A stretch of 52,676 bases of DNA. It comes from a virus. Its lineage: Duplodnaviria > Caudoviricetes. The position numbers were made by a program, and so were the translations under genes. The notes below the pieces were generated by a model. The model was not told the DNA's origin, made no database searches, and was given only the letters and a program-made list of their open reading frames with translations. Where the stretch lies: positions 1-52,676 of IMG/VR virus record IMGVR_UViG_3300043384_000025; one strand, given 5' to 3'. Below, in pieces: positions 3,948 to 28,192 of the stretch (positions are counted from its first letter, which is position 1; each line of letters starts with the position of its first letter).

Positions 3948-4507
3948 TTCGGGTGCGAGAACGTCACGACAGCGGACGGGAACGGCGCTGGGTCGAGCTT
4001 CTTGCCGGCGAGCTCGAAGCTCACCCGACCGGAGAGCAATCGGATCTCGATGCCGAGCGTCGCGGAGTCGAGCGAGATCCGAACGTCGAGCTCGTCGAGG
4101 CCGTAGTAGGCGCCGCGGAGCTGGCCGTCAGGGGTCCAGATGCTCTCGAACCAGTAGGCGGTCTCGACCCGAGCCGGTATCAGGCAGGAGATGAGCACCG
4201 GATAGGCGATGGCCGAGGCGCGAGCTTTCTTGATCCAGCGGTCGATGTGGCGCCCATACGGTGGATTGAGCCAGAACCGCTCGGCATTGAGGCACTCGGG
4301 CGACCACACCTGCGCGAGGGCGTCCTGGCCACGCGAGAGGAAGCGCCGGCACATGGCGTTCGCGCCCGAGGCCGCGAGGTCCATCTGATAGCAGCCATGG
4401 ATCGCGCTGAGGCGATCGAAGAGCACCCGCGGCGTCGACCACTCCTCTTTCTCGAGCGAGTCGGTCGCCGAGGTCATCACCAATCGCGCGTGCGACGGGG
4501 TCGTCAT
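3944..4507 (-). CDS. Phage DNA N6-adenine methyltransferase (Dam-like)
   Basis: EWSTP, MDLAAS, WLNPPYG and LIPARVET motifs. Confidence 0.85.
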   Translation of the reverse strand: MTTPSHARLVMTSATDSLEKEEWSTPRVLFDRLSAIHGCYQMDLAASGANAMCRRFLSRGQDALAQVWSPECLNAERFWLNPPYGRHIDRWIKKARASAIAYPVLISCLIPARVETAYWFESIWTPDGQLRGAYYGLDELDVRISLDSATLGIEIRLLSGRVSFELAGKKLDPAPFPSAVVTFSHPK

Positions 4508-6909
4508 GGCGCCACCTTGCGAGGCCGGGAGACGAACTCGGCTCGCCACGCCTTCGCTCCGTGGGGCCAGTGCTTGTAGCGGCTCATCCACCGGATCTCG
4601 GCCCACCCGCGCTTGTACGCGCGCTGCCGCTCGACGCCGAGGAGGTAGAAGAAGTACCCGCGAGCCTGCTCGGGCGTTGCCGGCGGCGGCTTCGCGGAGC
4701 GCTCAATGTCAGCGAGCGAGACCGCGACCCCACGCGCGTTGCGAACGAGCCGCCGCTTGACAGGGTTCACGAAGCCGCAGAGCGGGCAGGAGGCGCCGTC
4801 CGCGAGGTAGACCGCGAAGCACTTGCGACAGGTTCGTAAGGCCGCGCTCGCCTCGCCCTTGCCCTTCTCGCCGACGCCGACCCGGAAGTCACCGGCGAGG
4901 GACCAGACGCGCGGCTCGTCAGGCAAACCGTGCTGGAAGAGCACCCCGGCGTGGTCGTGGAGCCTGGCAAAGCGCTTCGTGACGGGCAGGCCGCAGGCGC
5001 AGTCCTCGTGGCGCCAGTGAGGGATCCGGCCGCAGGTGCACGGGACCGGGCGGCGACCGCGGCCGACCATCTGGATCGCGAGCGCCAGGGACAGCGTCGG
5101 CCGGGCGAGGATCACCGTCTCGATCGCCGGGAGGTCGATGCCCTCCGAGAACAGGCCCACGTTGCAGAGGACCCTGGTTGTGCCGGCGCGGAACGCCTCG
5201 AAGATGCGCTTGCGCAGCGGCCGCGGAGTCTCACCGTCGAGGTGCTGGGCCGTCACGCCGGCCGCGGCGAACTGGAGCGCCAGCTGCCGCGAGTGCGCGA
5301 CGTTCACGGCGAACACGAGCGCCCGGGTCCCGCGAGCGCGCTCCTGGTACTGCTCGACGACGTTCCCCCGGAGGCGCGAGCTGCCCATGAGGTCGGCGAG
5401 CTCGGCGCCGTCGAAGTCGCCGGCGGTCCTGCGCACGCCGCGCAGGTCCGGGGCGTCGTAGGCGAAGCCGCGCACGGGGACCAGGTGACCCGCGTCGACG
5501 AGCTCGGCAGGCTTCACGAGCTCGACGAGCTCCTCGAAGATGTCGCCGAGAGGGGCGCCGCTGAGCCGGCACGGGCTCGCGGTCGACCCGAGGATCGCGC
5601 TCGAGGGGTAGTGGTCGAGGATCTCGCGCCAGCTCGAGGCCGATGCGTGGTGGCAGTTGTGGACGAGGAAGCCGTTCACGAAGTAGGCGTGCGTCCCCGC
5701 GACCTCAAGGTTGTAGACCTTGCGGCCTGGACACATGCCTCCAAACGTTCCATCACTTCCCGGTTCGAGAACCTCAGTACGGTCCACCCGAGCCCACGCA
5801 AGAAGGTGGCCTTCTTCTCGTCCTTGGCCTTCGTCGCGATGGCGCAGTGAGAGGCGCCATCCACCTCGACCGCTGTCCTTGAGGCTGGGTGCGCGATGTC
5901 GATCTTGTAGCAGGTTGGGAACATCGACCTCCGAGGCCGCCCCGTGTTCACGGCGAACTCGGCGAACCAGCCAACCCCCAGCGATCGCAACAGCGTCAAC
6001 TGAGGAAGCGGAAGAGCTCGTCCGTTGCCGCCCTGCTGAAGAGGGCGGTGGCCGATCTCTCGAAGCCTGTCGCTCACTCTCTGGCGGACGTCCTCTAGCC
6101 TCATCGGATTGCGGGCCTTCATTCTGGCCGAGGCATAGAGACGGTTCGTTCTCGCCATGGCTGCCGAGCTGCTCCGTGCGACTACGAGTCTTTTGTGCTC
6201 CTCCGAGCAGTAGGCGCGTGCGGATCTCTTCCATAAAGACCATCGCCACCGCTGCGATGTCGTCGTCAGTTGGACGGGAGCTCCACACCAGGTGCATGCG
6301 GCTACACAGGACAGCATCGTCGACCTCCAGCGCTCTGGCCTCTCGCCAGCCGCGCGCCGTGAAGAAGGGGTGGTTCGGGGTGCAGCGGATCTCGGTGCCG
6401 TCGATCACCAGCCGCAAGAGCGCCCGCGGGGCGCTGCAGAACACTCGCAGGACCCGGCTTCGCACCATCCGGCCGGTCGCCTCGTCGAACGAGAGAACCG
6501 GATCGCCCTCTCGAAGCGATTCGATCGGCCGTCCGTCAACCAGTGATCCGGCCGGGAAGCACTCATCCACGAGTACGATGTCCGCCGGCGGCTTGTCCCG
6601 GCGGGCCAACGTCTGGACCGAGGCGACCTGGATTGGGCGCTCGGGGTGCTCTTCGACCCCGGCGAGGATCACGCCCGGCGGCTCGCCCGTCTCCTGGCCG
6701 ACGCGCTCGGCGAGGTCCTCGACGAGCTCGCGGCGGTGCGTGAGGGCGAGCCCGCGGTTCCCCTTGCGGACGGTGGACGCGAGGATGTGGGCGAGCACGG
6801 TGCCCTTGCCGGCGCCGCAGGGCGCGACGAAGACGATGCGGCGGCGGCCGGAGTTGACGAGCGACCTGCAGCGCTCGACGGTCGCGAGCTGGTAGGGTCG
6901 GAGGACCAC
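4504..6909 (-). CDS. SF2 DEAD/DEAH-box helicase with intein and C-terminal Zn finger
   Basis: LRPYQ, APCGAGKG, SVQTL, DE|CH split by the intein, TASPCR, SEGIDLP, QMVGRGRR, CxxC-CxxC. Confidence 0.92.
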   Translation of the reverse strand: MVLRPYQLATVERCRSLVNSGRRRIVFVAPCGAGKGTVLAHILASTVRKGNRGLALTHRRELVEDLAERVGQETGEPPGVILAGVEEHPERPIQVASVQTLARRDKPPADIVLVDECFPAGSLVDGRPIESLREGDPVLSFDEATGRMVRSRVLRVFCSAPRALLRLVIDGTEIRCTPNHPFFTARGWREARALEVDDAVLCSRMHLVWSSRPTDDDIAAVAMVFMEEIRTRLLLGGAQKTRSRTEQLGSHGENEPSLCLGQNEGPQSDEARGRPPESERQASRDRPPPSSAGRQRTSSSASSVDAVAIAGGWLVRRVRREHGAASEVDVPNLLQDRHRAPSLKDSGRGGWRLSLRHRDEGQGREEGHLLAWARVDRTEVLEPGSDGTFGGMCPGRKVYNLEVAGTHAYFVNGFLVHNCHHASASSWREILDHYPSSAILGSTASPCRLSGAPLGDIFEELVELVKPAELVDAGHLVPVRGFAYDAPDLRGVRRTAGDFDGAELADLMGSSRLRGNVVEQYQERARGTRALVFAVNVAHSRQLALQFAAAGVTAQHLDGETPRPLRKRIFEAFRAGTTRVLCNVGLFSEGIDLPAIETVILARPTLSLALAIQMVGRGRRPVPCTCGRIPHWRHEDCACGLPVTKRFARLHDHAGVLFQHGLPDEPRVWSLAGDFRVGVGEKGKGEASAALRTCRKCFAVYLADGASCPLCGFVNPVKRRLVRNARGVAVSLADIERSAKPPPATPEQARGYFFYLLGVERQRAYKRGWAEIRWMSRYKHWPHGAKAWRAEFVSRPRKVAP
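5656..6561 (-). mobile_element. Intein (302 aa) inserted in helicase motif II
   Basis: Begins CFPAGSLV, block B CTPNHPF, ends VYNLEVAGTHAYFVNGFLVHN followed by Cys. Splicing restores VDE-CHH. Confidence 0.93.
5676..6317 (-). CDS. Vsr/DUF559-like endonuclease nested out of frame inside the intein (putative homing endonuclease)
   Basis: 213 aa with its own GGAGG 6 nt before the ATG. N-terminal CxxC...YCS, NPM...VRQRVS DNA-binding-like segment, and YKIDIA...AVEVDGASH...DEKK..FLRGLGWTVLRFSN. Confidence 0.82.
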   Translation of the reverse strand: MLSCVAACTWCGAPVQLTTTSQRWRWSLWKRSARAYCSEEHKRLVVARSSSAAMARTNRLYASARMKARNPMRLEDVRQRVSDRLREIGHRPLQQGGNGRALPLPQLTLLRSLGVGWFAEFAVNTGRPRRSMFPTCYKIDIAHPASRTAVEVDGASHCAIATKAKDEKKATFLRGLGWTVLRFSNREVMERLEACVQAARSTTLRSRGRTPTS

Positions 6910-6922
6910 GATGGGGTCCCGT

Positions 6923-7177
6923 CTACCCGGTCGACGCGAGCACCGCGGCGATCAATCGGTGGACGCGGCCCGGGAGAACCCGTACAAGGGCGCGCAAAGT
7001 CTCGAGCGTCGGATCCGCGCGCCCCCTCTCGGCGCGGTTGACGGCTGTTCTCGAGATCGCCGCGCGCCGTGCGAGCTCGCCCTGTGACCAGCCCGCCTTA
7101 CGACGCGCGTTTCTTATGACGTCGGGGAGCCGCGGTGTCGCAACCGACTCCGGGTCTCTTCGCGAGCGCTTATGCAT
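6923..7177 (-). CDS. Cro-like XRE helix-turn-helix regulator
   Basis: IRNARRKAGWSQGELARRAAISRTAVNRAERG; divergent from the second HTH gene. Confidence 0.85.
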   Translation of the reverse strand: MHKRSRRDPESVATPRLPDVIRNARRKAGWSQGELARRAAISRTAVNRAERGRADPTLETLRALVRVLPGRVHRLIAAVLASTG

Positions 7178-7186
7178 GGGCCGAGC

Positions 7187-7204
7187 TGTATCCAACGCGG
7201 TACA
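7187..7204. promoter_or_regulatory. Putative repressor operator TGTA-N10-TACA in the cro promoter
   Basis: TGTAtccaacgcggTACA, overlapping a minus-strand TTGCGA-N18-TACAGC promoter-like pair. Same palindrome at 8293 and 23215. Confidence 0.55.
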
Positions 7205-7256
7205 ACTTTCGCAAGGCCCCTTTGGGCGCGCACGGTACAGCGCGCGAGGTACAACC

Positions 7257-7760
7257 ATGGCACGATCTCGACGGCGGAAATCGAAGGGGAGAGGTCGAGC
7301 CACCGTGACCACCAAAGTGACCAAACACCCAAGGCGGCCGCTGTCGCCGCTGGGTCTCGCTGTCCAGAAGTTGCGTCACGAGTCAGGCCTGTCACAGGAG
7401 CGGCTTGCCGCGCTCGCGCGTATCGGCAGAACCACGATCGCCAAGCTAGAGACCGGCAGGAGCCAGACCATGACGATGGAGTCGCTGCAGAAGATCGCGC
7501 CGGCCTTGGGCACGACGGTCACCTCGATCTTGGCGATGGAGCCGGCAAGCGCCCCAGAGTCAGTCCGCAAGTCCGTCAGTCGGTTCGTCAGCAGCTACCT
7601 CTTGTCCCCCTGGGCGCTGCGCGACAAGCCGACCGAAGCCGAGAAGGCGAGGCTGCGGAAGATGGTGCCCGACAGCTTGACGGCGCGCGCACCAGTCGAC
7701 CTAGAGCCGTGGGCGGTTCACCTTCTCCTGATGTGGATCCGAGAGTGGGACCCCTGCTGA
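7257..7760 (+). CDS. CI-like XRE repressor
   Basis: VQKLRHESGLSQERLAALARIGRTTIAKLETG helix-turn-helix; ATG 7257 has no obvious RBS. Confidence 0.82.
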   Translation: MARSRRRKSKGRGRATVTTKVTKHPRRPLSPLGLAVQKLRHESGLSQERLAALARIGRTTIAKLETGRSQTMTMESLQKIAPALGTTVTSILAMEPASAPESVRKSVSRFVSSYLLSPWALRDKPTEAEKARLRKMVPDSLTARAPVDLEPWAVHLLLMWIREWDPC

Positions 7761-8283
7761 CCCAGTGGTCGGACTCAGAGTCCGTGTTACAGGCTCGGTG
7801 AGTGTATCGAGTGTGTATCGGGAATGCGCAACTGTTCTCCGGCCATCCCTTGGCTTGGAGTCCGGGTGGCACACGCTGTGTGCAGAATGCGCGGCAGCCG
7901 TTACACTGGGGGCCGACCTACGCTTGGATCGGGGGCTGCCAGTGTCGTCAAAGTCAGGCTTGGTATTCTCGACGCAGAGGCTCACGGTCATCATCAGCGA
8001 GCGACTCCGCCCAGAGCAGTCGCAGATCTGGGCCGGCGGCCGCATCGTCGTCGTCGGGCCAGGCCCAAGGGCAGCGGAGCGCGCCGAGTACGCGCTGCGA
8101 ACCTGGCGGCTCTGCGAACGGGCCACCGAGCTCGATGAAGCGGCGGGTCGGAAGGCCGCGACGCTGAGTCGTTGAATAGCTGACGTTCTGTAGTTCCCCC
8201 TGGAACAACAGCCGAACCTGACCAGTCCCCACTGGCAACGGCTCCGTTGTGTCCAGCACGCCCACAAGATTTGAGCCTGGCAC

Positions 8284-8312
8284 TTGCGCGAATGTACCGC
8301 GCTAGCTACAAC
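8284..8312 (+). promoter_or_regulatory. Putative early promoter with operator
   Basis: TTGCGC-N17-TACAAC overlapping TGTAccgcgctagcTACA (8293-8310), upstream of the plus-strand operon. Confidence 0.5.
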
Positions 8313-8345
8313 GCACGCTCCACTGCATCTGCGCGGGCGGGCCCC

Positions 8346-9230
8346 ATGAGTGGCGTCCAGAGCGACTATCGAGAGCAGCCTGGCGCGCACTACTCCACGC
8401 TCAAGGAACTGGGGCGCTCCGCTCGCCACTTCGCCTGGCTCGAGGCGCACGATCGCGAGCCGACCGCCGCCCTCGGCGTCGGGATCGCGACTCACCTCGC
8501 GGTGCTCGAGCCTGAGAAGTTCGCCGAGCGCGTGGTGATCTGGGGGCGCCAACTCGGCAGGCGCTCGGGGTCGATCTGGGCGAAGTTCAAGGGCTCCGCG
8601 GATCGGCGCGACCAGATCGTCCTGACCGAGGACGAGCACGACGAGGTGCTCGCGCTTGCTCGCGCGGTTCGTTCGAGCCCCCAGGCCAGGCCGCTGCTCA
8701 CCGACCCGAGCGGCGAGGCCGAGAAGGCGATCGCCTGGGTCGACGGCGAGACGGGGATCCAGTGCAAGGCCCGTCTCGACTGGGTGTGCGGCGCGGGAAT
8801 CGCAGACCTGAAAACCACGCGCGACGCGAGCCCCGACGGCTTCGCGCGCGAGTGCGCGCGCTACGGCTACCACAGGCAGGCTGCGTTCTACGTTGACGGC
8901 TACACCGCTGCTCAATGCCCGCGCGGAGGCTTGGTGTCCGCGACCCACCGGCAGGCGGCGTTCTCGATCATCGCCGTCGAGAAGGCACCGCCGTACGTCG
9001 TCCAGGTCTACCGCGTCGCCGGCGACGTGCTCGAGCTCGGCCGCGCGGAGATGCGGAGCTACCTGCGCCAGCTCGCTCAGCTGCAACGGCTCCCGCAGGA
9101 CCAATGGCCGGGCTACGCCGACGAGCCGCTCGACCTGTACCTGCCGCGGTGGGCGATGCCGCGGGAGGACGCGCTCGGCGACCTCGGGCTCGACGCGACT
9201 GGTCTCGACGACGCCACGAAGGAGGACTGA
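8346..9230 (+). CDS. PD-(D/E)XK exonuclease (ExoVIII/DUF3799-like)
   Basis: GIATHLAVLEPEKF, CKARLDW, IADLKTT, YGYHRQAAFY, IIAVEK, WPGY. Contains solo repeat S1 in frame. Confidence 0.88.
   Translation: MSGVQSDYREQPGAHYSTLKELGRSARHFAWLEAHDREPTAALGVGIATHLAVLEPEKFAERVVIWGRQLGRRSGSIWAKFKGSADRRDQIVLTEDEHDEVLALARAVRSSPQARPLLTDPSGEAEKAIAWVDGETGIQCKARLDWVCGAGIADLKTTRDASPDGFARECARYGYHRQAAFYVDGYTAAQCPRGGLVSATHRQAAFSIIAVEKAPPYVVQVYRVAGDVLELGRAEMRSYLRQLAQLQRLPQDQWPGYADEPLDLYLPRWAMPREDALGDLGLDATGLDDATKED
8909..8944 (+). repeat. Solo CRISPR repeat S1, in frame in the exonuclease gene
   Basis: TGCTCAATGCCCGCGCGGAGGCTTGGTGTCCGCGAC, 32/36 identical to the array consensus. Confidence 0.93.
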
Positions 9231-9235
9231 AGCCC

Positions 9236-9454
9236 ATGACACAGGACGAGCGCGAGGCGATGCGAACGGTGCTGCGAGAGAACATCGGCAAACTGATTCG
9301 CGATCTGTTGGTCGCGCCGCTGGAGGACGCATGCAAGGAGCGCCCGACCTCCGAAATCGATCGTGAGCTCCTCGAGATCGGGCGCGAGGTGTTGGCCGAC
9401 CTCACAGGACAGGTCGTCGAACCCAGCCTCATCAAGGGCGGGCCACACCTATGA
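9236..9454 (+). CDS. Hypothetical protein
   Basis: GGAGG upstream, 72 aa, coupled to the next gene. Confidence 0.6.
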   Translation: MTQDEREAMRTVLRENIGKLIRDLLVAPLEDACKERPTSEIDRELLEIGREVLADLTGQVVEPSLIKGGPHL

Positions 9455-9936
9455 GCGACACCGGCCCTGGCCCCAACGAGATCGTCGATCTGCCCGTCCC
9501 AGACGACTGGACTAAGTTGTTTGAGTCCCGCTTCCTTCACGCGGCGGACCTCGGCGGTCGCGATGTCGTGCTCAAGATCGAGCGGATGGTCTTCGAGGAG
9601 ATGCCGGACCCGAAGACGCCGAAGGCACGAAAGAAGATGGGCTCGCTCGTCTTCGAGGGACGAAAGAAGATCCTCGGGCTCAACCGGACTAATGCCACGT
9701 GCCTCAAGCAGATGTTCGGCCCCAAGCTCGCGACCTGGGTCGGCAAGCGCATCGGCCTCTACCCGACCACGGTGAGGATGCCGAAGCCGGGATCTCGGGA
9801 GATGGTCGACGAGCCCTGCATCCGCGTGCGCGGCTCGCCCGACATCGAGGCGGAGATCGTCTTCGAGCTCGTCTTGCCGCAGCGCGCGCCGATGACGGTC
9901 AAGCTCCAGCGGCTCGCCGCGGAGAAGAAGCCATGA
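9451..9936 (+). CDS. Conserved phage protein, possibly ssDNA-binding or annealing partner of the exonuclease
   Basis: FLHAADLGGRDV...LGLNRTNA...WVGKRI...CIRVR; function inferred from context only. Confidence 0.65.
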   Translation: MSDTGPGPNEIVDLPVPDDWTKLFESRFLHAADLGGRDVVLKIERMVFEEMPDPKTPKARKKMGSLVFEGRKKILGLNRTNATCLKQMFGPKLATWVGKRIGLYPTTVRMPKPGSREMVDEPCIRVRGSPDIEAEIVFELVLPQRAPMTVKLQRLAAEKKP

Positions 9937-13401: not shown

Positions 13402-13976
13402 ACCGCAAGGGCAGAGAAGTGATCGAGACGAAGACCGAGGACCTGCTCGTCGTACTCGAAGAGGACGAGATCAACGAGCGCGCACGCAAGCTCGCCGCGA
13501 AACAGGGCGAGCTCGAGCACCAAATCGATGAAGGGCGCCGCATCCAGGGCGAGCAGGCCACGAGGCGCAAGGCCATCGAGGCGGAGATCAAGGGCCTCGG
13601 CGACGCCGTCCGCGAAGGGACGGAGCTGCGCCCGGTGGTCGTCGAGATCATCGCGAACTATTCGAAGGCCACCATCCAAGAGATCCGAGAGGACACGGGG
13701 AAGGTGATCATCGAGCGGGCGATGCGGGCCGACGAGCGGCAGATCGGGATCCCCATGAACGAGATCAAGAACGAGTCCCCGAAGGCGGTCGCAAAGCGGC
13801 TCTTCGCCGATGGCGTCCGCCCCGAGGACGTCGGGATCGAGCAGAGGGTCAGCGATGCCGCGGCGGCGGCGCACGTCGAGATCGCCGCGGTGCTCGAGGC
13901 GCTGGTCGACCTCGCCGAGGAGGCGGCCGCGAGGAAGGGCAAGCGCAAGGGCGGCGATGGCGAGGCGACGCCGTGA
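13398..13976 (+). CDS. Hypothetical protein
   Basis: GAGGAG RBS, strong GC3 bias, 192 aa. Confidence 0.7.
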   Translation: MNRKGREVIETKTEDLLVVLEEDEINERARKLAAKQGELEHQIDEGRRIQGEQATRRKAIEAEIKGLGDAVREGTELRPVVVEIIANYSKATIQEIREDTGKVIIERAMRADERQIGIPMNEIKNESPKAVAKRLFADGVRPEDVGIEQRVSDAAAAAHVEIAAVLEALVDLAEEAAARKGKRKGGDGEATP

Positions 13977-14587
13977 GCGCACGCATCGGCGCATGGTCGC
14001 AGACCTACACGGGCCGCCAATACTGGCCGCAGGACCCGCGCCCCGAGGACGTTGACCCGATCGACATCGCGCACGCCCTGTCGCTGCAATGTCGTTTCGG
14101 CGGCCACTGCAAGTGGCATTACTCGGTAGCGCAGCACTCGCTTCTTGTGGCCGAACTCCTCGGCTCAATGCCCGCGCAGGGGCCTGGTACCTGCGACTGG
14201 GGCTTGCTGCACGATGCCTCCGAGGCATACATGGTCGACCTCCCGAGGCCGCTGAAGAACCACTCGGCGATGGGCCTCGAATACAAGCGGATCGAAGCAC
14301 TGAACATGAGAGCGATCTGGGCGCGCTTCGGGCTCGTCGGACCGCAACCCGAGGCTGTCGCAATCGCCGACGAAGTGGCGTTGGCGATGGAGTTTCGCGA
14401 CGTCATGGGGTTGCCTCCGGATGCGCTGAATCTCCAGCAGGCGCCGGCGTCCCCCATCATCACTCGCATGAGCCCGGAGGCTTGCGAGGCGATCTTCCTC
14501 AATACCCTCGGCGTGCTCCTCGAAGCCCGAAGGGACGAGCAGGCGGGGTGGTCTTCGGCACATCTCCTCGCGCTCGAAGAACGATGA
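13973..14587 (+). CDS. HD-domain phosphohydrolase (YfdR/YfbR-like 5'-deoxynucleotidase)
   Basis: DIAHALS..CRFGGH..YSVAQHS...LLHDASEAY..DLPRPLK. Contains solo repeat S2 in frame. Confidence 0.9.
   Translation: MSARIGAWSQTYTGRQYWPQDPRPEDVDPIDIAHALSLQCRFGGHCKWHYSVAQHSLLVAELLGSMPAQGPGTCDWGLLHDASEAYMVDLPRPLKNHSAMGLEYKRIEALNMRAIWARFGLVGPQPEAVAIADEVALAMEFRDVMGLPPDALNLQQAPASPIITRMSPEACEAIFLNTLGVLLEARRDEQAGWSSAHLLALEER
14162..14197 (+). repeat. Solo CRISPR repeat S2, in frame in the HD hydrolase gene
   Basis: GGCTCAATGCCCGCGCAGGGGCCTGGTACCTGCGAC; stem CGCAGG/CCTGCG fully compensated. Confidence 0.85.
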
Positions 14588-15005: not shown

Positions 15006-15041
15006 ATATCAATGCCCGCGCGGAGGCCTGGTATCCGCGAC
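15006..15041 (+). repeat. Solo CRISPR repeat S3 in the cas12 5' region
   Basis: ATATCAATGCCCGCGCGGAGGCCTGGTATCCGCGAC, ending 42 nt before the cas12 ATG. Confidence 0.93.
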
Positions 15042-15083
15042 TGCGCGCTCGGGACGTCGAGGATCCGAAGAGGAGGCATTGCA

Positions 15084-16790
15084 ATGATCGTCTACAAATA
15101 TCGCATCTACCCAGACGAATCCGATCCGATGCTGCGCCAGATCCTGATGAGGGGAGAACGCTTCGCGCGGGTGATGACCGAGATCCATCAGCGTTACAAA
15201 GAGGCGGCTGCCGATCGCAAGCTTGTCGCGGTCGAGCAGCGCCGGGACTTCGCCTTGCTGGCCAAGTCGAGATTCCTCGCCGAGGCTAGGGACGCCAGGG
15301 CCCATTCCGGGCTCCACGGTAGCACCTGTAGCGCGATATCTGCCGCGCGCGACCAGGCCGCGCGTACGACCTCGCGCAAGTGCCTGCTCGCCAAGAAGGG
15401 CGGGGTGTGCCGCTGCGGCGAAGAGCATGCCGAGGGTACGCGCATTTGGATGCAATTCGAGCCACGGGTGGCAATCGTGGGGTGCCCGTTCTGCGGCCGA
15501 GGCCTTCGCATGCCGATCTCCGGAGAAGGGGGCGTCATCGGCGGGCAGATTCGCCACGACCGGCGATATTGCACGACAGACGAGATCCTCGGCGGCGAGT
15601 CTAGCGCCGTGCGCATTACTGGGACGGGGCGCGACCGCGTCGTACATCGTCGCGTGGCCGCCGCCGACGGAGAACCGGTATGGCTCTCGGCGCCGATGGT
15701 CTACCATCGCCCTCTGCCTCCTGGAGAGGGGGCGCGAGATGCTAGATTCGTGCGGCGTCGCATCGGCCATCACGCCGAGTGGCACGTGCTATTAACGATC
15801 GACTCCGAGTCATCGAGGCTTCCGAGCCCGACAAAGGGGTCCGTCGGCATCGATCTCGGCTGGCGACAGATGGACACCGGCGAGCTCCGAGTCGCAGCGT
15901 GGCGTGACGACACCGGCGCAGAGGGAGAGGTCCGCATCCCGGCGCAACTCGTTCGAGACATGCGCTCTGTCGACGAATTGCAGTCGACCAGGTCGACCAA
16001 CCTGGACGCGCTCCGAGACGCCCTGGTACTCGCCCGTGAGAGCTGGCCCGCGGGACTCTCCGAGGCGACTCGCTCGCTCCATCAATGGCGGTCACCAGAT
16101 CGGTTCGTGAGGCTCATGTACCGCATTCGCCGGGAAGCGCCAGGCGTCGCCGGAGCGGGCGCACTACGCGACTGGTATCGACGCCTGGACGACACCGGCC
16201 TGGCCCACGGAGAGAGCCATCTCAGAGAATGGGCGGAGCACCAGCGGGAGCATTGCCTGCTACGGAGAAAGGAGTTCTTTCGCTTGCAGGCACGGCAGTT
16301 CGCGGCGTACCGCGAAATGCATTGCGAGGACCTCGACCTATCCAAGTTGGCCAGACTCGCGGACGACCCCGAAGAGCGCCTCGCCAGGAAGGCGAGGCAT
16401 AACCGGATGCTTGCCGCGCCGAGCTACCTGCGCGCCGACATATTGTCATGCGTCGAACGGGCCGGCGGGCTGGTGGTCAAAGTGGACCCGGCGTACACCA
16501 CGCAGAAGTGCCCGATGTGCGGCCTCGTCTCCAGGTTGGACCCGATGCCGATCATACATACCTGCCCCGAGTGCGGTGTGACGCTCGACCAAGACCTCAA
16601 GGCAGCCGAAAACATTCGGCGAGCGCCGAGGTGCTCGCCGCCGAAGGGACCCCGCTCGCAGCCGCAAGATGCCGAGGTCGCAAAGCTTTCCGCATGGGCG
16701 CGCAGAAAGGCAGCCAAGACAGCACGAGAAGCGGAGGACCGCTCGCAAGGCGACTTGCAAGTGGTCGACAACATTGACATCGCAAAGTGA
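15084..16790 (+). CDS. cas12m: Compact type V CRISPR effector, Cas12m-like (V-M/V-U1, TnpB-derived), 568 aa
   Basis: AGGAGG RBS; N-terminal VYKYRI; MVYHRPLP; RuvC-I VGIDLGWR (D257); RuvC-II CEDLDL (E415); AAPSYLR; TTQKCPMCG...CPECG; RuvC-III DQDLKAAENI (D504). Stop is 3 nt from the first repeat. Subtype assigned from remembered motifs, not from a search. Confidence 0.85.
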   Translation: MIVYKYRIYPDESDPMLRQILMRGERFARVMTEIHQRYKEAAADRKLVAVEQRRDFALLAKSRFLAEARDARAHSGLHGSTCSAISAARDQAARTTSRKCLLAKKGGVCRCGEEHAEGTRIWMQFEPRVAIVGCPFCGRGLRMPISGEGGVIGGQIRHDRRYCTTDEILGGESSAVRITGTGRDRVVHRRVAAADGEPVWLSAPMVYHRPLPPGEGARDARFVRRRIGHHAEWHVLLTIDSESSRLPSPTKGSVGIDLGWRQMDTGELRVAAWRDDTGAEGEVRIPAQLVRDMRSVDELQSTRSTNLDALRDALVLARESWPAGLSEATRSLHQWRSPDRFVRLMYRIRREAPGVAGAGALRDWYRRLDDTGLAHGESHLREWAEHQREHCLLRRKEFFRLQARQFAAYREMHCEDLDLSKLARLADDPEERLARKARHNRMLAAPSYLRADILSCVERAGGLVVKVDPAYTTQKCPMCGLVSRLDPMPIIHTCPECGVTLDQDLKAAENIRRAPRCSPPKGPRSQPQDAEVAKLSAWARRKAAKTAREAEDRSQGDLQVVDNIDIAK

Positions 16791-16793
16791 CCC

Positions 16794-17390
16794 CTCTCAA
16801 TGCCTGCGCGGAGGCTTGGTATCCGCGACCTCTCCGAGGCGGTGCGCTTCGACCCGAAGGGCTTCTCTCAATGCCTGCGCGGAGGCTTGGTATCCGCGAC
16901 GAGCTGGTCTCCGTGCATGCAGCCGTCACCACGCACTCTCAATGCCTGCGCGGAGGCTTGGTATCCGCGACGAGGCAGATCATGACTCGCATACCAGCCT
17001 ATCTCCCTCTCAATGCCTGCGCGGAGGCTTGGTATCCGCGACTTGATGCTCTCGAGCATTTCGCGCGAGGGGGCGCGCTCTCAATGCCTGCGCGGAGGCT
17101 TGGTATCCGCGACTGCCAGCTCGGGACGATGCCCGCGAAGAGGCTCGCCCGTCCCCTTTCAATGCCTGCGGAGAGGCCTTGTATCTCCGACCTCGAGCGC
17201 CCGGTCGAGCTCGGCGCGGGTGGCCGGCTTTCAATGCCTGCGGAGAGGCTTGGTGTCTCCGACCGTGGGCTCGTGCTCGTCGCGCCGCCGCAATCTCGAG
17301 CTCTCAATGCCTGCGCAGAGGCTTTGTTTCTGCGACGCGCGGATTCTCCTATTACTCTCAATGCCTGCGAAGAGGCTTTGTATCTTCGAC
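16794..17390 (+). CRISPR. CRISPR array, 9 repeats of 36 nt and 8 spacers
   Basis: Consensus CTCTCAATGCCTGCGCGGAGGCTTGGTATCCGCGAC. Starts at 16794, 16865, 16936, 17007, 17078 (identical) and 17156, 17228, 17301, 17355 (variants). Spacers are 35, 35, 35, 35, 42, 36, 37 and 18 nt. Confidence 0.97.
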
Positions 17391-17459: not shown

Positions 17460-17774
17460 ATGGACATCGAGTGCGTCATCAGAGAAGCGGTTCGTACCAG
17501 CATCCGCGAGGAGCTGCGCGCCGCCCTGGGCGAACTCAAGGCCTCGACGGCGCCAGCGGCCTACCTCACGATCCGCGAGGCCGCGGAGCTCGCCAGGGTC
17601 TCGTGCGACTCGCTCCGGAGGTGGATCGGCGCCGGCCGCCTCACCGCTCGGCGTGCCGGCAGGGAGTTGCGGATCGAGCGCTCGGCTCTCGAGGCGTTCC
17701 TCTCGGAGAACATCGCGGCCCCCAAACCGTCGCCAGATCAGTGCTTCGATCGGATGTTCGGCGGCAAGCGCTGA
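17460..17774 (+). CDS. xis: Excisionase / HTH_17 DNA-binding protein
   Basis: YLTIREAAELARVSCDSLRRWIGAGRLTARRAGRELRI; directly upstream of the integrase. Confidence 0.85.
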   Translation: MDIECVIREAVRTSIREELRAALGELKASTAPAAYLTIREAAELARVSCDSLRRWIGAGRLTARRAGRELRIERSALEAFLSENIAAPKPSPDQCFDRMFGGKR

Positions 17775-17822: not shown

Positions 17823-17858
17823 CTCTCAATGCCTGCGAAGAGGCTTGGTATCTTCGAC
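17823..17858 (+). repeat. Solo CRISPR repeat S4, abutting the integrase RBS
   Basis: CTCTCAATGCCTGCGAAGAGGCTTGGTATCTTCGAC, then GAGGAGGCAGC-ATG. Confidence 0.95.
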
Positions 17859-17869
17859 GAGGAGGCAGC

Positions 17870-19624
17870 ATGGGGCTGTACGCGAGAGGCACGCGGCTTT
17901 GGTTTTCGTGGACCGACGCGAACGGGAAGCGGCACCGCGAGCCGAGCGACTTCGAGGTCGGCCAGGAAGCGATGGCCGCGAAGGTGCTCGCGCGCGGGCA
18001 GGCGAAGATCGCCGCCGAGAAGAAGGCGCTGGCCGGCGGGCCGCGCGTGCACACCGAGAAGACTTCGCTGACCGACTACGTGCTGGGCGCACCTGGTGGC
18101 TGGCTCGAGGTCCGCCGGGCACGCAAGCCCGGTGTCGCTGCGAGCGAGCAGAGCATGTTCGAGTGCCACATCAGCCCGTTCCTCGGCCAGATGGCGCTGG
18201 GAGAGATCCGGCCTCGGAACGCGCGCGCGTTCATCTGGCACATGCGCGAGAAGATCAGCGAGGAGACCGGCCGGACGTTCGGAGGCAGGACGATTCGATC
18301 GATCGCCGGTCTGCTCGGGGCCATCCTCGACGATGCCGCGAGCGACGAGATCATCCCGATCAGCCCGTACAAGCTCAAGCGCGGGGATCTCCCGCCGAAG
18401 ATCGACGTCGATCCTCTGTGGCGGCAGCTCGCGTTCTTCGAGCGCGAGGAGATCGAGCAGTTGATCGGCGACCCGCGGATCCCGGAGGATCGCCAGGTGG
18501 TCTACGCCCTGGGGTTCATGACCGGCATGCGGCCGGGCGAGGTCGCTGCCCTGCGATGGGAGCGCTACCTGGCGAACGAGCAGCCGCTTGGGAAGCTGGT
18601 GGTCGCGACGAGCTTCTGCGCGAAGACGCACAAGGAGAGGCCGACCACCAAGACGAGCTCGACGAAGCTCGTGCCCGTGCACGCGTCGCTCGCGTCGATC
18701 TTGGCGAAGTGGAAGCTCGGCGGGTGGGCGCGGCTCATGGGCACTGACCCGCGGCCCAGGGACCTGCTCGTGCCGTCACGGCGGCGCGGGGACTTCCGCA
18801 ACCCCAACGACATGACGAACTCGCTCGAGGTCGACCTCGATGCGCTGGGGCTGCGCCGCAGGACGGCGCGCGACTGGAGGCCGAGCTTCATGACGCTGGT
18901 GCGGGCGGACGGGGCGATCGACGAGATCGCCAGGATGATCACGCATGGGGGGCAAAAGGACACCGTCGGCGGTTACCTTCGATTCCCATGGGCGACCGTG
19001 TGCCGCGAGTTGGCGAAGTTGCGAATCGAGCTCCGGGGGGAGGGGCTCGTGCTACCTTTTCGGCAGGCGGTCGGGGGGGACGGAGTCACGATGGAGGATG
19101 GGGTCTCAATGCCCGCGGAGAGGCCTGGTATCTCCGACATATCACACGCGGGGGAATCTGAGGCATTGGCACAGCGTTGTCACAGCCCGGAAAAACAGCC
19201 CTGTTTACAGCTACCTGGGGAGGTACACGGTTTGAGCCGGAACCAAAGTGCGGGTGTGGGGCCAGGCAGACTCACGCCGGCTAACGCCGCAGAATCACAG
19301 AGTGTCGCGGCGCGGCAATCGGCGTCAAGCGGGCTCGCGCCGACTCCCGTTGTGACAATGTGCCAATCAGGCGGCCGCACCAAGCCCGCCGTCGAGCCCG
19401 TCGTCGACCCCGTCGCCGACCCGTGGGACGAAGCCGCTACACGTTTTGTAGCGGCCGTAGCGGCCGCCCGGGACCCCGTCGGCGAAGCCCTCCTCGCCGC
19501 CCAGGATGCCTGGAGCGGGGCTCGCGACCGCATCGGCCTCCGAGTGCGCCTGCTCGAGATCGACCGCCTGCTCGACCGCATGGCCCTTGCCGAGCGGCCC
19601 TTGCCGCCGGGGGGCAAGCCTTGA
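17870..19624 (+). CDS. int: Tyrosine integrase with long C-terminal extension
   Basis: TGMRPGEVAALRW, TKT, VPVH, RDWR (variant of HxxR), ITH, GGY. Confidence 0.9.
   Translation: MGLYARGTRLWFSWTDANGKRHREPSDFEVGQEAMAAKVLARGQAKIAAEKKALAGGPRVHTEKTSLTDYVLGAPGGWLEVRRARKPGVAASEQSMFECHISPFLGQMALGEIRPRNARAFIWHMREKISEETGRTFGGRTIRSIAGLLGAILDDAASDEIIPISPYKLKRGDLPPKIDVDPLWRQLAFFEREEIEQLIGDPRIPEDRQVVYALGFMTGMRPGEVAALRWERYLANEQPLGKLVVATSFCAKTHKERPTTKTSSTKLVPVHASLASILAKWKLGGWARLMGTDPRPRDLLVPSRRRGDFRNPNDMTNSLEVDLDALGLRRRTARDWRPSFMTLVRADGAIDEIARMITHGGQKDTVGGYLRFPWATVCRELAKLRIELRGEGLVLPFRQAVGGDGVTMEDGVSMPAERPGISDISHAGESEALAQRCHSPEKQPCLQLPGEVHGLSRNQSAGVGPGRLTPANAAESQSVAARQSASSGLAPTPVVTMCQSGGRTKPAVEPVVDPVADPWDEAATRFVAAVAAARDPVGEALLAAQDAWSGARDRIGLRVRLLEIDRLLDRMALAERPLPPGGKP
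19103..19138 (+). repeat. Solo CRISPR repeat S5, in frame in the integrase C-terminal extension
   Basis: GTCTCAATGCCCGCGGAGAGGCCTGGTATCTCCGAC; stem CGGAGA/TCTCCG. Confidence 0.92.
19165..19367. other. Putative attP inside the integrase gene
   Basis: Left arm-like repeats TTGGCACA and TTGTCACA (19166-19184) are inverted relative to TGTGACAA and TGTGCCAA (19351-19366); lower GC. Core not identified. Confidence 0.55.
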
Positions 19625-19629
19625 TCGCC

Positions 19630-19665
19630 CCCTCAATGCCCGCGCAGAGGCTTGGTGTCTGCGAC
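19630..19665 (+). repeat. Solo CRISPR repeat S6, just after the integrase stop
   Basis: CCCTCAATGCCCGCGCAGAGGCTTGGTGTCTGCGAC; stem CGCAGA/TCTGCG. Confidence 0.92.
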
Positions 19666-21342: not shown

Positions 21343-21378
21343 GTCGGAGATACCAAGCCTCTCCGCGGGCATCGCGCA
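21343..21378 (-). repeat. Solo CRISPR repeat S7 (minus strand, 3' UTR of the leftward operon)
   Basis: Reverse complement is TGCGCGATGCCCGCGGAGAGGCTTGGTATCTCCGAC; first 6 nt diverged, both stems intact. Confidence 0.88.
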
Positions 21379-21397: not shown

Positions 21398-21712
21398 CTA
21401 CTTCGCCGGATCGGCCGCCGCCACCTGTTGCGCGCCGCTGGCCCTGGGCTCGACGCCGAGCGCTTCCCGCGCACGCTGGCAGAGCACGACCGAGGAGGCG
21501 TGATCGCTGCCGGTGAGGCGCTTCCATTCCTTGGCTACCTCATCGGTCCAATACCGGCCATCGTGAAAGAGCAGCACCGCTCGGAGGGCGTCGCCCATGG
21601 CATGGACGGTGGTCTCGGCCTGCCGGGCCAACTCGATCAGCTGCTCGTTCTGCTCATGCAGTAGGCGCCAATCCCGCTCGATCGTCCGCAACCGTTCTTC
21701 GATGATGTTCAC
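21398..21712 (-). CDS. Hypothetical protein
   Basis: GTG after GGAGG, coupled to the upstream stop. Confidence 0.6.
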   Translation of the reverse strand: MNIIEERLRTIERDWRLLHEQNEQLIELARQAETTVHAMGDALRAVLLFHDGRYWTDEVAKEWKRLTGSDHASSVVLCQRAREALGVEPRASGAQQVAAADPAK

Positions 21713-26140: not shown

Positions 26141-28192
26141 CTAGCGTTGCCTGATGGGACTCACGCGCTTCGATTCCGATCGAAGCGAGATCCTCGAGCC
26201 GGAGCGCAGCGAATACGTCGGTTGGCCGCGCAGGTGGCGCATGGCATTCACCTCCCGCAGCGAGGGTGCGACGGCCACGACGAGCACTGCGGCCGACGGC
26301 GCCGGCGCGCTAGGAGGGTTCGAGGGGGCGCCGGCAGTGTGAGCGGCCGCGCTCACGCCGCCGCTCATGGCAATCCGGGTCGTCAGCGCGAGAGCCGCCT
26401 GAGAGCTGGACATCGCGCCCAGGGACGTCATTGCGCTTGTTTGCCCGGTCAGGTCTGCCGCGGCAACGCACACAGCGGTCGCGGCACCCGCGAGCGAGAT
26501 CGCCGTCGAGAGAGTCCCGGCGATAGCGCTCGGCCGGCTCGACTCGAGCGAGATCGCCGTGGTGAGGGAGGCCGAAGCGGAGCTCTGCGCGACGACCCCG
26601 CCGGCCAGGTGGATCTCGGTGACGAGCGAGGCCGTCGCGGCGCTGGACGCGGTCGTGGTGCCAGTGAGCGGGATCGCCGTGCTGAGCGAGGCACCCGGCG
26701 ATGCTGCGGCGAAGACTGCGTCCGCGAGCGGGAGAGCCGTGGTGAGCGATGCCGCGGCGGAGCTCGACTCCAACACCGCGCCGGCGAGCGGGATCGCGGT
26801 GGTGAGGGCGGCGCCGGTCGAGGTTTGCGCGACCGCGGTGCCGACGACGGGGATCGCCGTGGTGAGCACCGCCACGGCCAAGCTCGGGACGGCAACCGAC
26901 GCGGCGAGTTGGACCGACGTGGTGAGCGCGGCCAACGCGGAGCTCGGTGCCGTGACAACGCCCACGAGCGAGACGGCTGTGCTCAGCGCCGCGCCTGACG
27001 TGGCTTGTACGGTCGCAGCGCCCGCGACCGGAATCCCCGTGCTCAGCGCGGCCGACGCGCTCGCTTGCGCGGCATCCGCACCGCCGAACCGGATCGCCGT
27101 GGATAGCGCAGCCGCGGCGGAGCTCGTCGCCACGACCGCGGCGGCGATGGGGATCGCCGTGCTCAGCGCACAGGCCGCGGAGCTTGGCGCAACGACCCCG
27201 ACCGCCAGCTGAACCGCCGTGGAGAGCGCGCCACCTGCCACAGCCGAGGTCGCGGCCGAGCCAACCAGGGCGGCCGGGACCGAGAGCGCCGCCGACGCGA
27301 CGCCCGACGAAGCGGCCCCGCCCGCGAACCGGATCGCGGTGACGAGACTGGCGGCCGCCGAAGCAGGTGCGACCACCGCGCCCGCGAGCGCGACGGCCGT
27401 GCTCAGGGTGCCACCCGGCGAGCTCGACGCGGCGACTACGTCCGCAAGCGGGATCGCCGTGCTCAGTGCGCCGTGGGACGAGGCCTGCGCCGCGACGCCG
27501 CCGGCGACGGGAATCGATGTGGTGAGCGCGGCCGTCGCCGAAGCTTGTGAGGTCGCCGCGCCCGCGAGTTGGATCGCAGTGGTGAGGGCCGCGCCTGCAC
27601 CCGCCGAGGCGACGATCGCGCCGGCCAAGGCAGCGGGTACCGACAGCGCGCCAGCGGGTGACCCTTGCGCCGCCGCGGTTCCGGCGAGTTGGATCGCCGT
27701 CGAGAGGCCCGCGGCTGCGGTGCTCGGCGCCGTCGCCGCGCCGGCGAGCGGGATCCCGGTCGAGAGCGCGCCGCTCGCCGTGGCTGTGGTGGCAGGCGCG
27801 CCTGCGAGCTGGATCGCCGTCCCGAGCGCGCCTGACGTGGCGGACGACGCGGTGCTCGCCCCGACGAGTTGGACGGCTGTCGACAGCGCCGCCGCTGGGG
27901 TGCTCGTGCCGGCCGCGGCGCCGGCGAGCGCGATCTGGGTCGTGAGCGCCGCGCCAGCCTGGGCGAGCGCCACCGCGGGGCCCACCAGTGCGACCGAGGT
28001 AGAGAGCGCGCCCGCGACCGAGCAGGCGGTCGCGGCGCCCCCGGCGAGCGAGGTGTCCGCCGACGCCGACTGATTGCGGTCGGCTGCGCTGGTCCACGGC
28101 GCCGACGACGGCACCATTAGGGCCCGTTGCTGCCCGAACGGCGTCGCATTGGCGACCGCGTTGAGCGCTACCGTGGAGTGCAGCCAGACCAT
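26141..28192 (-). CDS. Ala/Thr/Ser-rich tandem-repeat protein (fibre-like)
   Basis: About 25 units of about 22 aa (LSTAIPLAGAAxAxSSAxAA). Confidence 0.75.
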   Translation of the reverse strand: MVWLHSTVALNAVANATPFGQQRALMVPSSAPWTSAADRNQSASADTSLAGGAATACSVAGALSTSVALVGPAVALAQAGAALTTQIALAGAAAGTSTPAAALSTAVQLVGASTASSATSGALGTAIQLAGAPATTATASGALSTGIPLAGAATAPSTAAAGLSTAIQLAGTAAAQGSPAGALSVPAALAGAIVASAGAGAALTTAIQLAGAATSQASATAALTTSIPVAGGVAAQASSHGALSTAIPLADVVAASSSPGGTLSTAVALAGAVVAPASAAASLVTAIRFAGGAASSGVASAALSVPAALVGSAATSAVAGGALSTAVQLAVGVVAPSSAACALSTAIPIAAAVVATSSAAAALSTAIRFGGADAAQASASAALSTGIPVAGAATVQATSGAALSTAVSLVGVVTAPSSALAALTTSVQLAASVAVPSLAVAVLTTAIPVVGTAVAQTSTGAALTTAIPLAGAVLESSSAAASLTTALPLADAVFAAASPGASLSTAIPLTGTTTASSAATASLVTEIHLAGGVVAQSSASASLTTAISLESSRPSAIAGTLSTAISLAGAATAVCVAAADLTGQTSAMTSLGAMSSSQAALALTTRIAMSGGVSAAAHTAGAPSNPPSAPAPSAAVLVVAVAPSLREVNAMRHLRGQPTYSLRSGSRISLRSESKRVSPIRQR

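Follow-up and report, generated by a model that had tools for sequence, protein, structure and literature searches.

A recE-like nuclease gene (positions 8346 to 9230, plus strand) in the virus genome IMGVR_UViG_3300043384_000025 contains a 36-nucleotide (nt) clustered regularly interspaced short palindromic repeat (CRISPR), here called S1 (8909 to 8944), which is followed directly by a 20-nt copy of the gene's own conserved motif (8945 to 8964). The stretch of DNA that was analyzed, referred to below as the window, is the whole 52,676-nt record and the entire genome available for this phage, and CheckV estimated it to be approximately 80% complete. We propose, at a probability of roughly one half, that S1 and the 20-mer behind it (8909 to 8964) form a unit resembling a CRISPR RNA (crRNA) within the recE-like mRNA, that this unit serves the phage's own Cas12m-like effector against sibling phages, and that the phage's own site is spared by two silent changes. 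The sense orientation of the S1 unit within the open reading frame (ORF) makes its transcription as part of the nuclease mRNA likely. The Cas12m-like protein would then recognize the repeat hairpin and use the adjoining 20 nt for guidance, and the resulting complex would bind matching double-stranded DNA (dsDNA) and block transcription or replication without cutting, a mode of action that is assumed here from relatives of the effector.

The native copy of the motif lies at 8870 to 8889 on the plus strand (C-HRQAAF-T of YHRQAAFY), where it forms an imperfect protospacer-like site with the 5' flank CTA (8867 to 8869). It reads CCACAGGCAGGCTGCGTTCT, and the copy behind S1, also on the plus strand, reads CCACCGGCAGGCGGCGTTCT and encodes (T)HRQAAF(S). 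A repeat search matched the two at 18 of 20 positions, with 75 nt, or 25 codons, from start to start, and the likeness ends on both sides (A at 8869 versus C at 8944, and ACGTTG from 8890 versus CGATCA from 8965). When up to three mismatches were allowed, the 20-mer had only these two sites on both strands of the whole window; shuffles that preserved dinucleotides gave an expected 0.03 matches per shuffle, and none of 100 gave two. The nuclease protein accordingly reads HRQAAF at residues 176 to 181 and again at 201 to 206. Both mismatches, at guide positions 5 and 13, are synonymous (AGG versus CGG and GCT versus GCG). In codon counts from a crude set of 42 ORFs with high G+C content at third codon positions (GC3), AGG made up 13.7% and CGG 24.2% of Arg codons, and GCT made up 6.9% and GCG 48.1% of Ala codons. 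An earlier note on this DNA, made from its sequence alone, had described the 18-of-20 match that then stops, the doubled HRQAAF, and the silent mismatches at positions 5 and 13, all of which were borne out by the sequence and the shuffles, and its statement that the native copy has the less GC-typical codons holds in these counts.

S1 is in frame, encodes A-A-Q-C-P-R-G-G-L-V-S-A-(T), and is a member of the repeat family of the phage's own CRISPR array. It has two mismatches to the array consensus over a 34-nt core, both of them outside the stem, and the stem CGCGGA/TCCGCG is intact. With the repeat end set from the array copies, the copy of the motif begins at the first base 3' of S1 and is exactly 20 nt long. 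This had been called a guide length, which fits the published crRNA of Cas12m2, numbered -36 to 20 and thus made of a 36-nt repeat part and then a 20-nt guide (PMC10442227), and also the R-loops of approximately 20 bp of GoCas12m (PMC11013384). Cas12m enzymes are described in the available part of the latter source as using a single 50- to 60-nt crRNA and no trans-activating crRNA; S1 and the 20-mer together measure 56 nt, in the order found in a Cas12m crRNA.

The protein that carries the duplicated motif has 294 amino acids and belongs to the DUF3799 family of PD-(D/E)XK nucleases (Pfam PF12684, E = 3.2e-25, residues 17 to 259). The NCBIfam model of the C-terminal nuclease region of exodeoxyribonuclease VIII (RecE) matched it at E = 9.3e-28, far below the curated cut-off for the full length. 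In an alignment of the protein with 21 homologs, DLK at 154 to 156 and Q178...Y182 occupied invariant or near-invariant columns, in keeping with DUF3799 membership. An AlphaFold2 model made from this 22-sequence alignment, with a mean predicted local distance difference test score (pLDDT) of 89.9, placed the first HRQAAF inside a helix (residues 175 to 190). Residues 191 to 205, which comprise the S1-encoded part and most of the second HRQAAF, were modeled as coil, with a pLDDT of 60 for the block from 191 to 200; F206 starts a strand (206 to 212), and relatives also have F there. According to this model, the second HRQAAF is a loop and not a second active-site element. Because it lies in a low-confidence loop, the protein gives no reason for the duplicate, which points to the nucleotides and not to the peptide.

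The effector that would use such a guide is encoded at 15084 to 16790 on the plus strand. It has 568 amino acids when counted from the chosen start, an ATG behind GAGGAGG, in a frame that is open from 14589. Its class assignment rests on a phmmer search of the PDB, in which the matches were 23vw_A (Cas12m, E = 1.9e-33, residues 184 to 512), 23vu_A (UnCas12m4a, 2.7e-23), and 8hhl_A (Cas12m2, 4.7e-14), and the next family, Cas-phi, reached only 2.3e-06. In other libraries, the protein matched guided_TnpB (NCBIfam, 1.3e-15) and the Cas12f1-like TNB zinc ribbon (Pfam, 3.6e-15), and its alignment to 23vw_A gave D257, E415, and D504 as RuvC candidates. The CRISPR array begins 6 nt past the effector stop codon on the same strand. 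The system therefore combines likeness to characterized Cas12m proteins with an adjoining array, a structured repeat of approximately 36 nt, and a guide 3' of the repeat. Cas12m proteins whose triad is D-E-D, H-D-D, or N-D-D are described as not cleaving dsDNA but binding it in a manner dependent on a protospacer-adjacent motif (PAM), acting as a roadblock to transcription or replication, and as processing pre-crRNA within the repeat (PMC11013384). Neither Cas1 nor Cas2 was found in the record, at its approximately 80% completeness, and new guides therefore cannot come by the usual route.

Relatives with and without the repeat

A protein search with the nuclease gave 277 homologs at E <= 0.001 among 8000 scored candidates, and the 21 chosen for alignment were the nearest of these together with a wider sample. 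None of the 21 had the 11 extra residues that S1 encodes. The nearest, P0002 (82% identity), reads ...YHRQAAFYSDGYAA-SHRGLMPAF-WIIAVEK, and the wider family reads SH.G..LP(F/Y) at the S1 site. P0003 (81% identity), whose source contig measures 61,472 nt, carries seven unrelated residues (RIDRAVE) at this site and then the native SHRGFMPPF, which makes the site look like a hot spot for insertions. A degenerate scan of IMG/VR for YGYHRQAAFY returned 17 loci, none of which had the repeat. The second HRQAAF was likewise absent from all 21 aligned homologs, from all 17 IMG/VR loci, and from the repeat-free sibling described next, so that the finding that would have spoken against the reading in the earlier note did not turn up.

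This sibling was the one contig (L020, 1847 nt) returned by a scan of JGI metagenomes with a pattern for ECARYGYHRQAAFY. It encodes a protein of the P0002 type, has the same neighboring genes as the window, and its nuclease gene is 87.4% identical to that of the window (742 of 849 aligned nt). Its first motif, which follows the 5' flank GCTACGGCTA as in the window, is CCACCGGCAGGCGGCGTTCT and thus agrees with the 20-mer behind S1 at 20 of 20 positions. Because the guide equals the stretch of the sibling letter for letter and the phage's own stretch differs at positions 5 and 13, the exclusion or handicapping of siblings is the most likely use of the unit. By parsimony, the state that the guide-like copy shares with the sibling is the ancestral one, and the window's own motif has changed twice. 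The only exact match to the 20-mer in IMG/VR, L002 (FGYHRQAAFYLDG), stands on an unrelated contig and covers the same motif; in L002 and L020 alike, the target is the first YHRQAAFY motif in a DUF3799-like gene and has the 5' flank GGCTA. S1 is therefore an intact repeat followed by a guide-length match to foreign DNA with a consistent flank, as would be expected of a crRNA unit. Among the other collected loci, the 20-mer had one mismatch to the motif of L016, two to those of L001, L003, L004, L014, and L015, and three to those of L006 and L009, and of the ten loci, L002 and L020 included, nine had the flank GGCTA. A search for loci related to the nuclease found a 39% relative (L001) in IMG/VR and none in the genome collection, and no INPHARED phage matched the gene by blastn.

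At the S1 site, L020 reads TCG CAC CGC GGG CTC ATG CCC GCG TTC TGG, which encodes SHRGLMPAF, and the window reads (AC)C CAC CGG CAG GCG GCG TTC TCG. Going from the former to the latter takes either five substitutions and a 6-nt deletion, all of them towards the first motif, or a 37-nt templated insertion, and on either path the 20-mer is a copy and not a product of drift. The opposite direction, with L020 as the deletion scar of a lost S1, was rejected since SH.G..(L)P(F/Y) occurs across the wider family, which makes the L020 arrangement the native one.

The sibling sequence also bears on how the unit arrived. Precisely where S1 stands in the window, L020 has CTCATGCCCGCG, which a single edit would turn into the first 13 nt of the repeat; such a match was seen once in 329 kb of other loci, and all those in the window belong to true repeats. 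When written as CTCATGCCCGCG^TTCT, the native sequence resembles both ends of a repeat-plus-spacer unit. Compared to it, the window has gained 1 nt (an extra A) and, at the point marked by the caret, 37 nt that correspond to the rest of the repeat and 16 nt of the guide, and it has lost 11 nt upstream, a loss that restores the frame at a net gain of 27 nt. A repeat-plus-spacer unit would thus have been copied into the gene at a spot that resembled both of its ends, after which the small upstream deletion would have restored the reading frame.

Contigs placed on 8300 to 9300 at a likeness of at least 80% were taken from the Logan assemblies of four other studies. In study X2, record 7 covered 8814 to 8995 with three differences and no gaps, and in study X3, record 11 covered 8837 to 9016 with two differences and no gaps; the S1 unit was kept in both. 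Seven other X2 pieces, among those listed, differed at 90 of 1254 positions. The most conserved stretch of the nuclease is encoded here too, which limits what conservation of the S1 unit says. The loose contig ends seen at 8911 and 8945 are flanks of other repeat copies, and those of the unit at 19630 were among them in X2 as well as in X3. Conversely, record 25 of study X5 spanned 8362 to 9234 with 77 differences and 32 gaps, and the gaps listed fell almost all in 8910 to 8940, which indicates another repeat-free relative.

Several of these findings, together with the statistics of change and target searches, weigh against the use of the unit that we propose. First, 38 of the 239 codons that encode the same residue in the window and L020 (16%) differ, which gives a probability of approximately 0.25 that at least two of six codons differ; two mismatches to the phage's own site fit background drift, and the claim of the earlier note that this site was recoded to escape is indistinguishable from it. 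The absence of change from all six codons of the 20-mer, at a probability of approximately 0.35, is equally unremarkable. Second, X3 seems to hold a near-identical strain (records 9 and 13 had no differences), so the conservation of the S1 unit there is weak evidence. Third, perfect targets are rare, with one in IMG/VR and one in JGI metagenome contigs, and none of the ten exact matches to the 20-mer in 185,579 species-representative genomes was in a DUF3799 gene. The earlier note had read the 20-mer as a spacer against homologous nucleases and expected perfect matches in DUF3799-like genes behind a consistent flank. S1 did prove to be a true repeat of a Cas12m-like system with a sibling target at 20 of 20, and the exact matches in L002 and L020 share the flank GGCTA, but such targets are few and the genome collection added none. 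Fourth, no protospacer was found for any spacer of the window array, either among the collected loci or, when the first 24 nt of spacers 1 and 2 were used, in IMG/VR (0 matches); when these spacers and those of L021 to L023 were compared to the collected loci and the window, only four matches emerged, each with 3 mismatches in 20 and without a pattern. Fifth, the target flank CTA differs from the PAM of Cas12m2, which is given as 5'-TTN (PMC10442227). Sixth, no RNA run was listed as holding the nuclease gene sequence. A promoter and terminator scan of 7000 to 9600 gave none of either, which is uninformative for a host of this type.

The resemblance of CTCATGCCCGCG to the start of the repeat is a further point on that side. 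The insertion looks as if short homology at its two ends, with a 12-nt microhomology at the site, had let the gene capture a repeat-plus-spacer unit, and it could have been accidental. In an accident of repeat mobility, the unit would have been copied by short-homology recombination and the frame repaired by the deletion, leaving a tolerated loop and a 20-mer that is a fossil spacer with no present role. We consider this unlikely. In its favor, the native sequence followed by TTCT resembles both unit ends, the changes of +1, +37, and -11 nt keep the frame, the insert sits in a loop with a pLDDT of 60, the repeat is free of stop codons in all three sense frames, and both the two mismatches and the unchanged 20-mer are compatible with neutrality. 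Such an accident does not sit well with a hairpin and a 20-mer that are intact and retained in contigs of two further studies, with the compensatory stem change that a second in-gene unit has acquired on its own, or with seven solitary copies, all in sense orientation, in a repeat family whose 40 matches in five other records are all inside arrays. Even if the capture was accidental, the spacer must once have guided against sibling recE genes, and the unit has since been kept intact.

The imperfect site in the nuclease gene could itself be the target. In this alternative, a crRNA from the recE mRNA guides Cas12m to the native motif 75 nt upstream, and pairing at 18 of 20 positions makes a weak roadblock on the template strand and thereby negative feedback on recE. 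We judge such attenuated self-repression, which the earlier note had raised as its other reading, to be quite unlikely. The only second site of the guide in the phage genome does lie in the same gene and on the same strand, and it has the flank CTA, as does the perfect target in L020. For Cas12 enzymes, pairing near the PAM side usually matters most, and one of the two mismatches is at position 5, near that side. The guide is moreover perfect for the sibling and imperfect for the phage itself, which a self-regulator would not need, and none of the other six solitary units has any self-target. Cas12m silences by binding, and a self-target need therefore not be lethal (PMC11013384), and partial complementarity is described as the rule for regulatory crRNA-like RNAs; the regulatory guides known from the available text of that preprint aim at promoters, however, and the S1 guide aims at the middle of a coding region (10.1101/2023.03.03.530964).

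The repeat family and its solitary copies

The window contains 16 copies of a single repeat of approximately 36 nt, nine in the array (16794 to 17390, plus strand) and seven solitary. Five of the array repeats are identical and four are variants with compensatory stem changes, and the spacers are approximately 35 nt long with the exception of the last internal one, which has only 18 to 20 nt. Spacer 5 (17114 to 17157) has 44 nt and, by eye, holds a truncated extra repeat (ATGCCCGCGAAGAGGCT...). In a 16-sequence alignment, the six-pair stem on the spacer side was paired in 96 of 96 cells, three of the six pairs had compensatory changes, and the covariation score was reached by none of 500 shuffles. 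Folding of the 56-nt S1 unit gave z = 0.66 relative to shuffles, which is uninformative at 68% GC, and covariation is the better test. A reading of the repeat on the minus strand (GTCGC...ATTGAGAG, class 1-like) was rejected, given the type V effector, the plus-strand location of effector and array, and the stem that abuts the spacer.

Five other records with this repeat family were found, four IMG/VR contigs and a provirus of Phytoactinopolyspora limicola, and all 40 matches in them (at most three mismatches) were inside arrays. Only this phage and its near relatives thus have the copies scattered. The presence of arrays of the family in an actinobacterial provirus and in other IMG/VR contigs shows that the repeat is common to very different hosts. 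In L021/L025 (the P. limicola provirus) and L022 to L024, most of the differences in the repeat fall on its first 5 nt and on stem pairs that covary.

All seven solitary repeats have the sense of local transcription. In addition to S1, they comprise a second in-gene copy (14162 to 14197, plus strand), discussed below, and a copy 43 nt 5' of the start codon of the effector gene (15006 to 15041, plus strand). Three more plus-strand copies lie directly 5' of the GAGGAGG and ATG of ORF 17870 (17823 to 17858), in the tail of that ORF (19103 to 19138), and at 19630 to 19665, with flanks that were also found in runs X2 and X3. The one minus-strand copy (21343 to 21378), 4 kb from the array, stands downstream of a minus-strand gene ending at 21709 and is followed by a hairpin. 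The copies at 15006 and 17823 stand right before GAGGAGG and ATG (15006 to 15086 and 17823 to 17872), so their would-be guides cover translation start regions, and the 15 nt behind the former resemble the start of array spacer 5 (TGC..GCTCGGGACG). ORF 17870-19624 looks by eye like a tyrosine recombinase, had no Pfam match at E <= 0.001, and follows closely on an HTH_17 protein (17460 to 17774). Its GC3 falls from 0.90 to 0.71 after approximately 19100, exactly at the solitary repeat, which may have displaced the original stop codon of this ORF. For the 15 units other than S1, no second site was found in the window at up to 2 mismatches in 20; since this leaves 15 of 16 units without a second self site, binding of the phage's own DNA is not a general role of the units.

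The second in-gene copy is in frame in an ORF (13973 to 14587) for a YfbR-like HD hydrolase, a name taken from homologs, as the window protein itself has no Pfam match. The repeat ends exactly before W-G-L-L-H-D-A, all invariant columns in a 14-sequence alignment, and the 20 nt behind it (unit 14162 to 14217) are consequently codons of the most conserved motif of the HD family. It replaces a variable loop, with a net gain of five residues relative to the two nearest homologs, and one stem pair is changed on both sides in a way common to no other copy. The HD unit follows the same logic as S1, in that a repeat is placed in front of a conserved motif. The HD hydrolase of the contig that encodes P0003 (P0123) does not have the repeat. 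Two observations on this unit add to the points against a guide function: L056, the only IMG/VR homolog to share the peptide, matched the HD guide at 18 of 20 positions with the flank CTC, and the HD guide uses the GC-atypical codons TTG and GAT. The target flank CTA and the repeat end at the same position, GAC, differ by T versus A at -2, and in 13 of 13 HD homologs, a Leu or Met codon before W would likewise put T at -2.

Taken together, the two in-gene units suggest, as a tentative generalization in which we have less than even confidence, that a phage without Cas1 and Cas2 may make guides by bringing the repeat to the spacer. Repeats would be placed before the most conserved motifs in genes of the phage itself, or a repeat and a copy of such a motif would be placed in a nearby loop; mRNAs would double as pre-crRNAs for Cas12m, and siblings with the same motif would be silenced. 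Self would be told apart by the repeat that stands in the place of the PAM or, for a transplanted copy, by synonymous codons.

The solitary repeats could instead act at the RNA level, as sites that Cas12m binds and cuts in the mRNAs of recE, the HD hydrolase, cas12m, and ORF 17870, with effects on their stability or translation, or as mimics that soak up host Cas12m, with the sequence behind them irrelevant. The two copies right before ribosome-binding sites, at 15006 (cas12m) and 17823 (ORF 17870), are suggestive of such control, as are the processing of pre-crRNA within the repeat by Cas12m (PMC11013384) and the phage solitary repeat units that act as RNA anti-CRISPRs, or Racr (PMC10651486). 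An exact, guide-length copy of a motif that starts at the repeat boundary is left unexplained by it, however, and this phage itself encodes an effector along with an array built from the repeat, whereas the Racr in the accessible text of the same paper are described without cas association; we therefore hold this explanation to be improbable.

Two features elsewhere in the window touch neither the repeat family nor the nuclease. An intein, matched by the Pfam models Intein_splicing (4.8e-10) and PT-HINT (6.7e-09), interrupts a helicase gene (4507 to 6909, minus strand; ResIII and Helicase_C), and its C-terminal splice end ...VHNC is visible by eye. The coding region from 26400 to 28100 contains a long run of 60-nt periodic repeats (17 copies listed, 60 to 73% identity to the reference), which suggests a repetitive structural or fiber-like protein.

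Comparison to known systems and significance

The window system resembles the type V-M Cas12m systems of MmCas12m2 and GoCas12m, as far as they are described in the sources at hand (PMC10442227, PMC11013384), in an effector of approximately 600 amino acids that is similar to the solved chains, a 36-nt repeat with the stem next to the guide, a 3' guide that uses approximately 20 nt, and an array behind the gene. It differs in being phage encoded, in the lack of any Cas1 or Cas2 found in the record, in its seven repeats outside the array, two of them in coding sequence, and in a candidate flank of CTA and not TTN. The one earlier report of a Cas12m carried by a phage is a 2026 preprint on the myxophage MV-1, a temperate phage whose Cas12m lies beside an array with a single consensus repeat and eight spacers; it has no adaptation genes, and protospacers were looked for there without success (10.64898/2026.09.14.751636). 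The MV-1 effector is given as 610 amino acids compared to 568 here by the chosen start. In the portion of the preprint text that was available, the words "solitary" and "self-targeting" had no occurrences and scattered or in-gene repeats were not described.

Virus-borne mini-CRISPR arrays provide the closest parallel to the proposed use, in that the guide matches close relatives and spares the virus itself, and exclusion of co-infecting kin is presumed (Medvedeva 2019, PMC6858448). Those arrays are intergenic and use host Cas proteins; in the window, the effector is encoded by the phage and a single repeat lies inside a gene. Single repeats that are scattered in a phage genome, transcribed, and bound by Cas proteins are features of Racr, but the Racr units of the accessible text are intergenic and have no guide function and no cas link (PMC10651486), and S1 is intragenic, in a phage with a matching effector and array. 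SRUFinder, the survey tool of the same paper, masks ORFs and treats intragenic matches as likely false positives, and units like S1 are thus missed by design.

The regulatory crRNA-like RNAs (tracr-L, scaRNA, CreA, and mini-arrays) share with the S1 unit a standalone repeat, a short guide, and an imperfect match to their own DNA, 18 of 20 here, and standalone repeats are described upstream of cas12a, just as one lies upstream of cas12m in the window (10.1101/2023.03.03.530964). Theirs hit promoters; the partial match of the S1 guide, at codons 175 to 182, falls within the coding sequence 75 nt before the guide itself and not in a promoter as an autoregulatory mini-array would have it, and a foreign relative is matched perfectly.

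A spread of the repeat by transposon-like movement was also considered. In TnpB systems, the guide of the omega-RNA is the DNA behind a structured RNA end, and a moving element makes a new guide without Cas1-Cas2. The seven solitary repeats of the window have no transposon end, transposase, or common motif upstream of them, and a regular array is present; given the lack of a common upstream target motif, this mode of spread was rejected. In the literature searched, we found no in-frame repeat inside a gene, no transplanted guide-length copy of a phage's own motif, and no sibling with a perfect target.

Should the S1 unit function as we propose, 56 nt of in-frame sequence would suffice to obtain a Cas12m guide from an mRNA, a compact design for gene circuits, and surveys of solitary repeats that mask ORFs, such as those made with SRUFinder, would miss a class of elements. 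Phage-borne Cas12m would gain a concrete function, and the window S1 unit and L020 would be the first target pair of such a system, as neither the available text of the MV-1 preprint (10.64898/2026.09.14.751636) nor the present analysis found targets of array spacers. A stretch of protein-coding sequence would double as a CRISPR guide, self and nonself would be told apart by two silent codon changes, and phages would need no spacer-acquisition machinery to make their conserved genes into weapons against close relatives.

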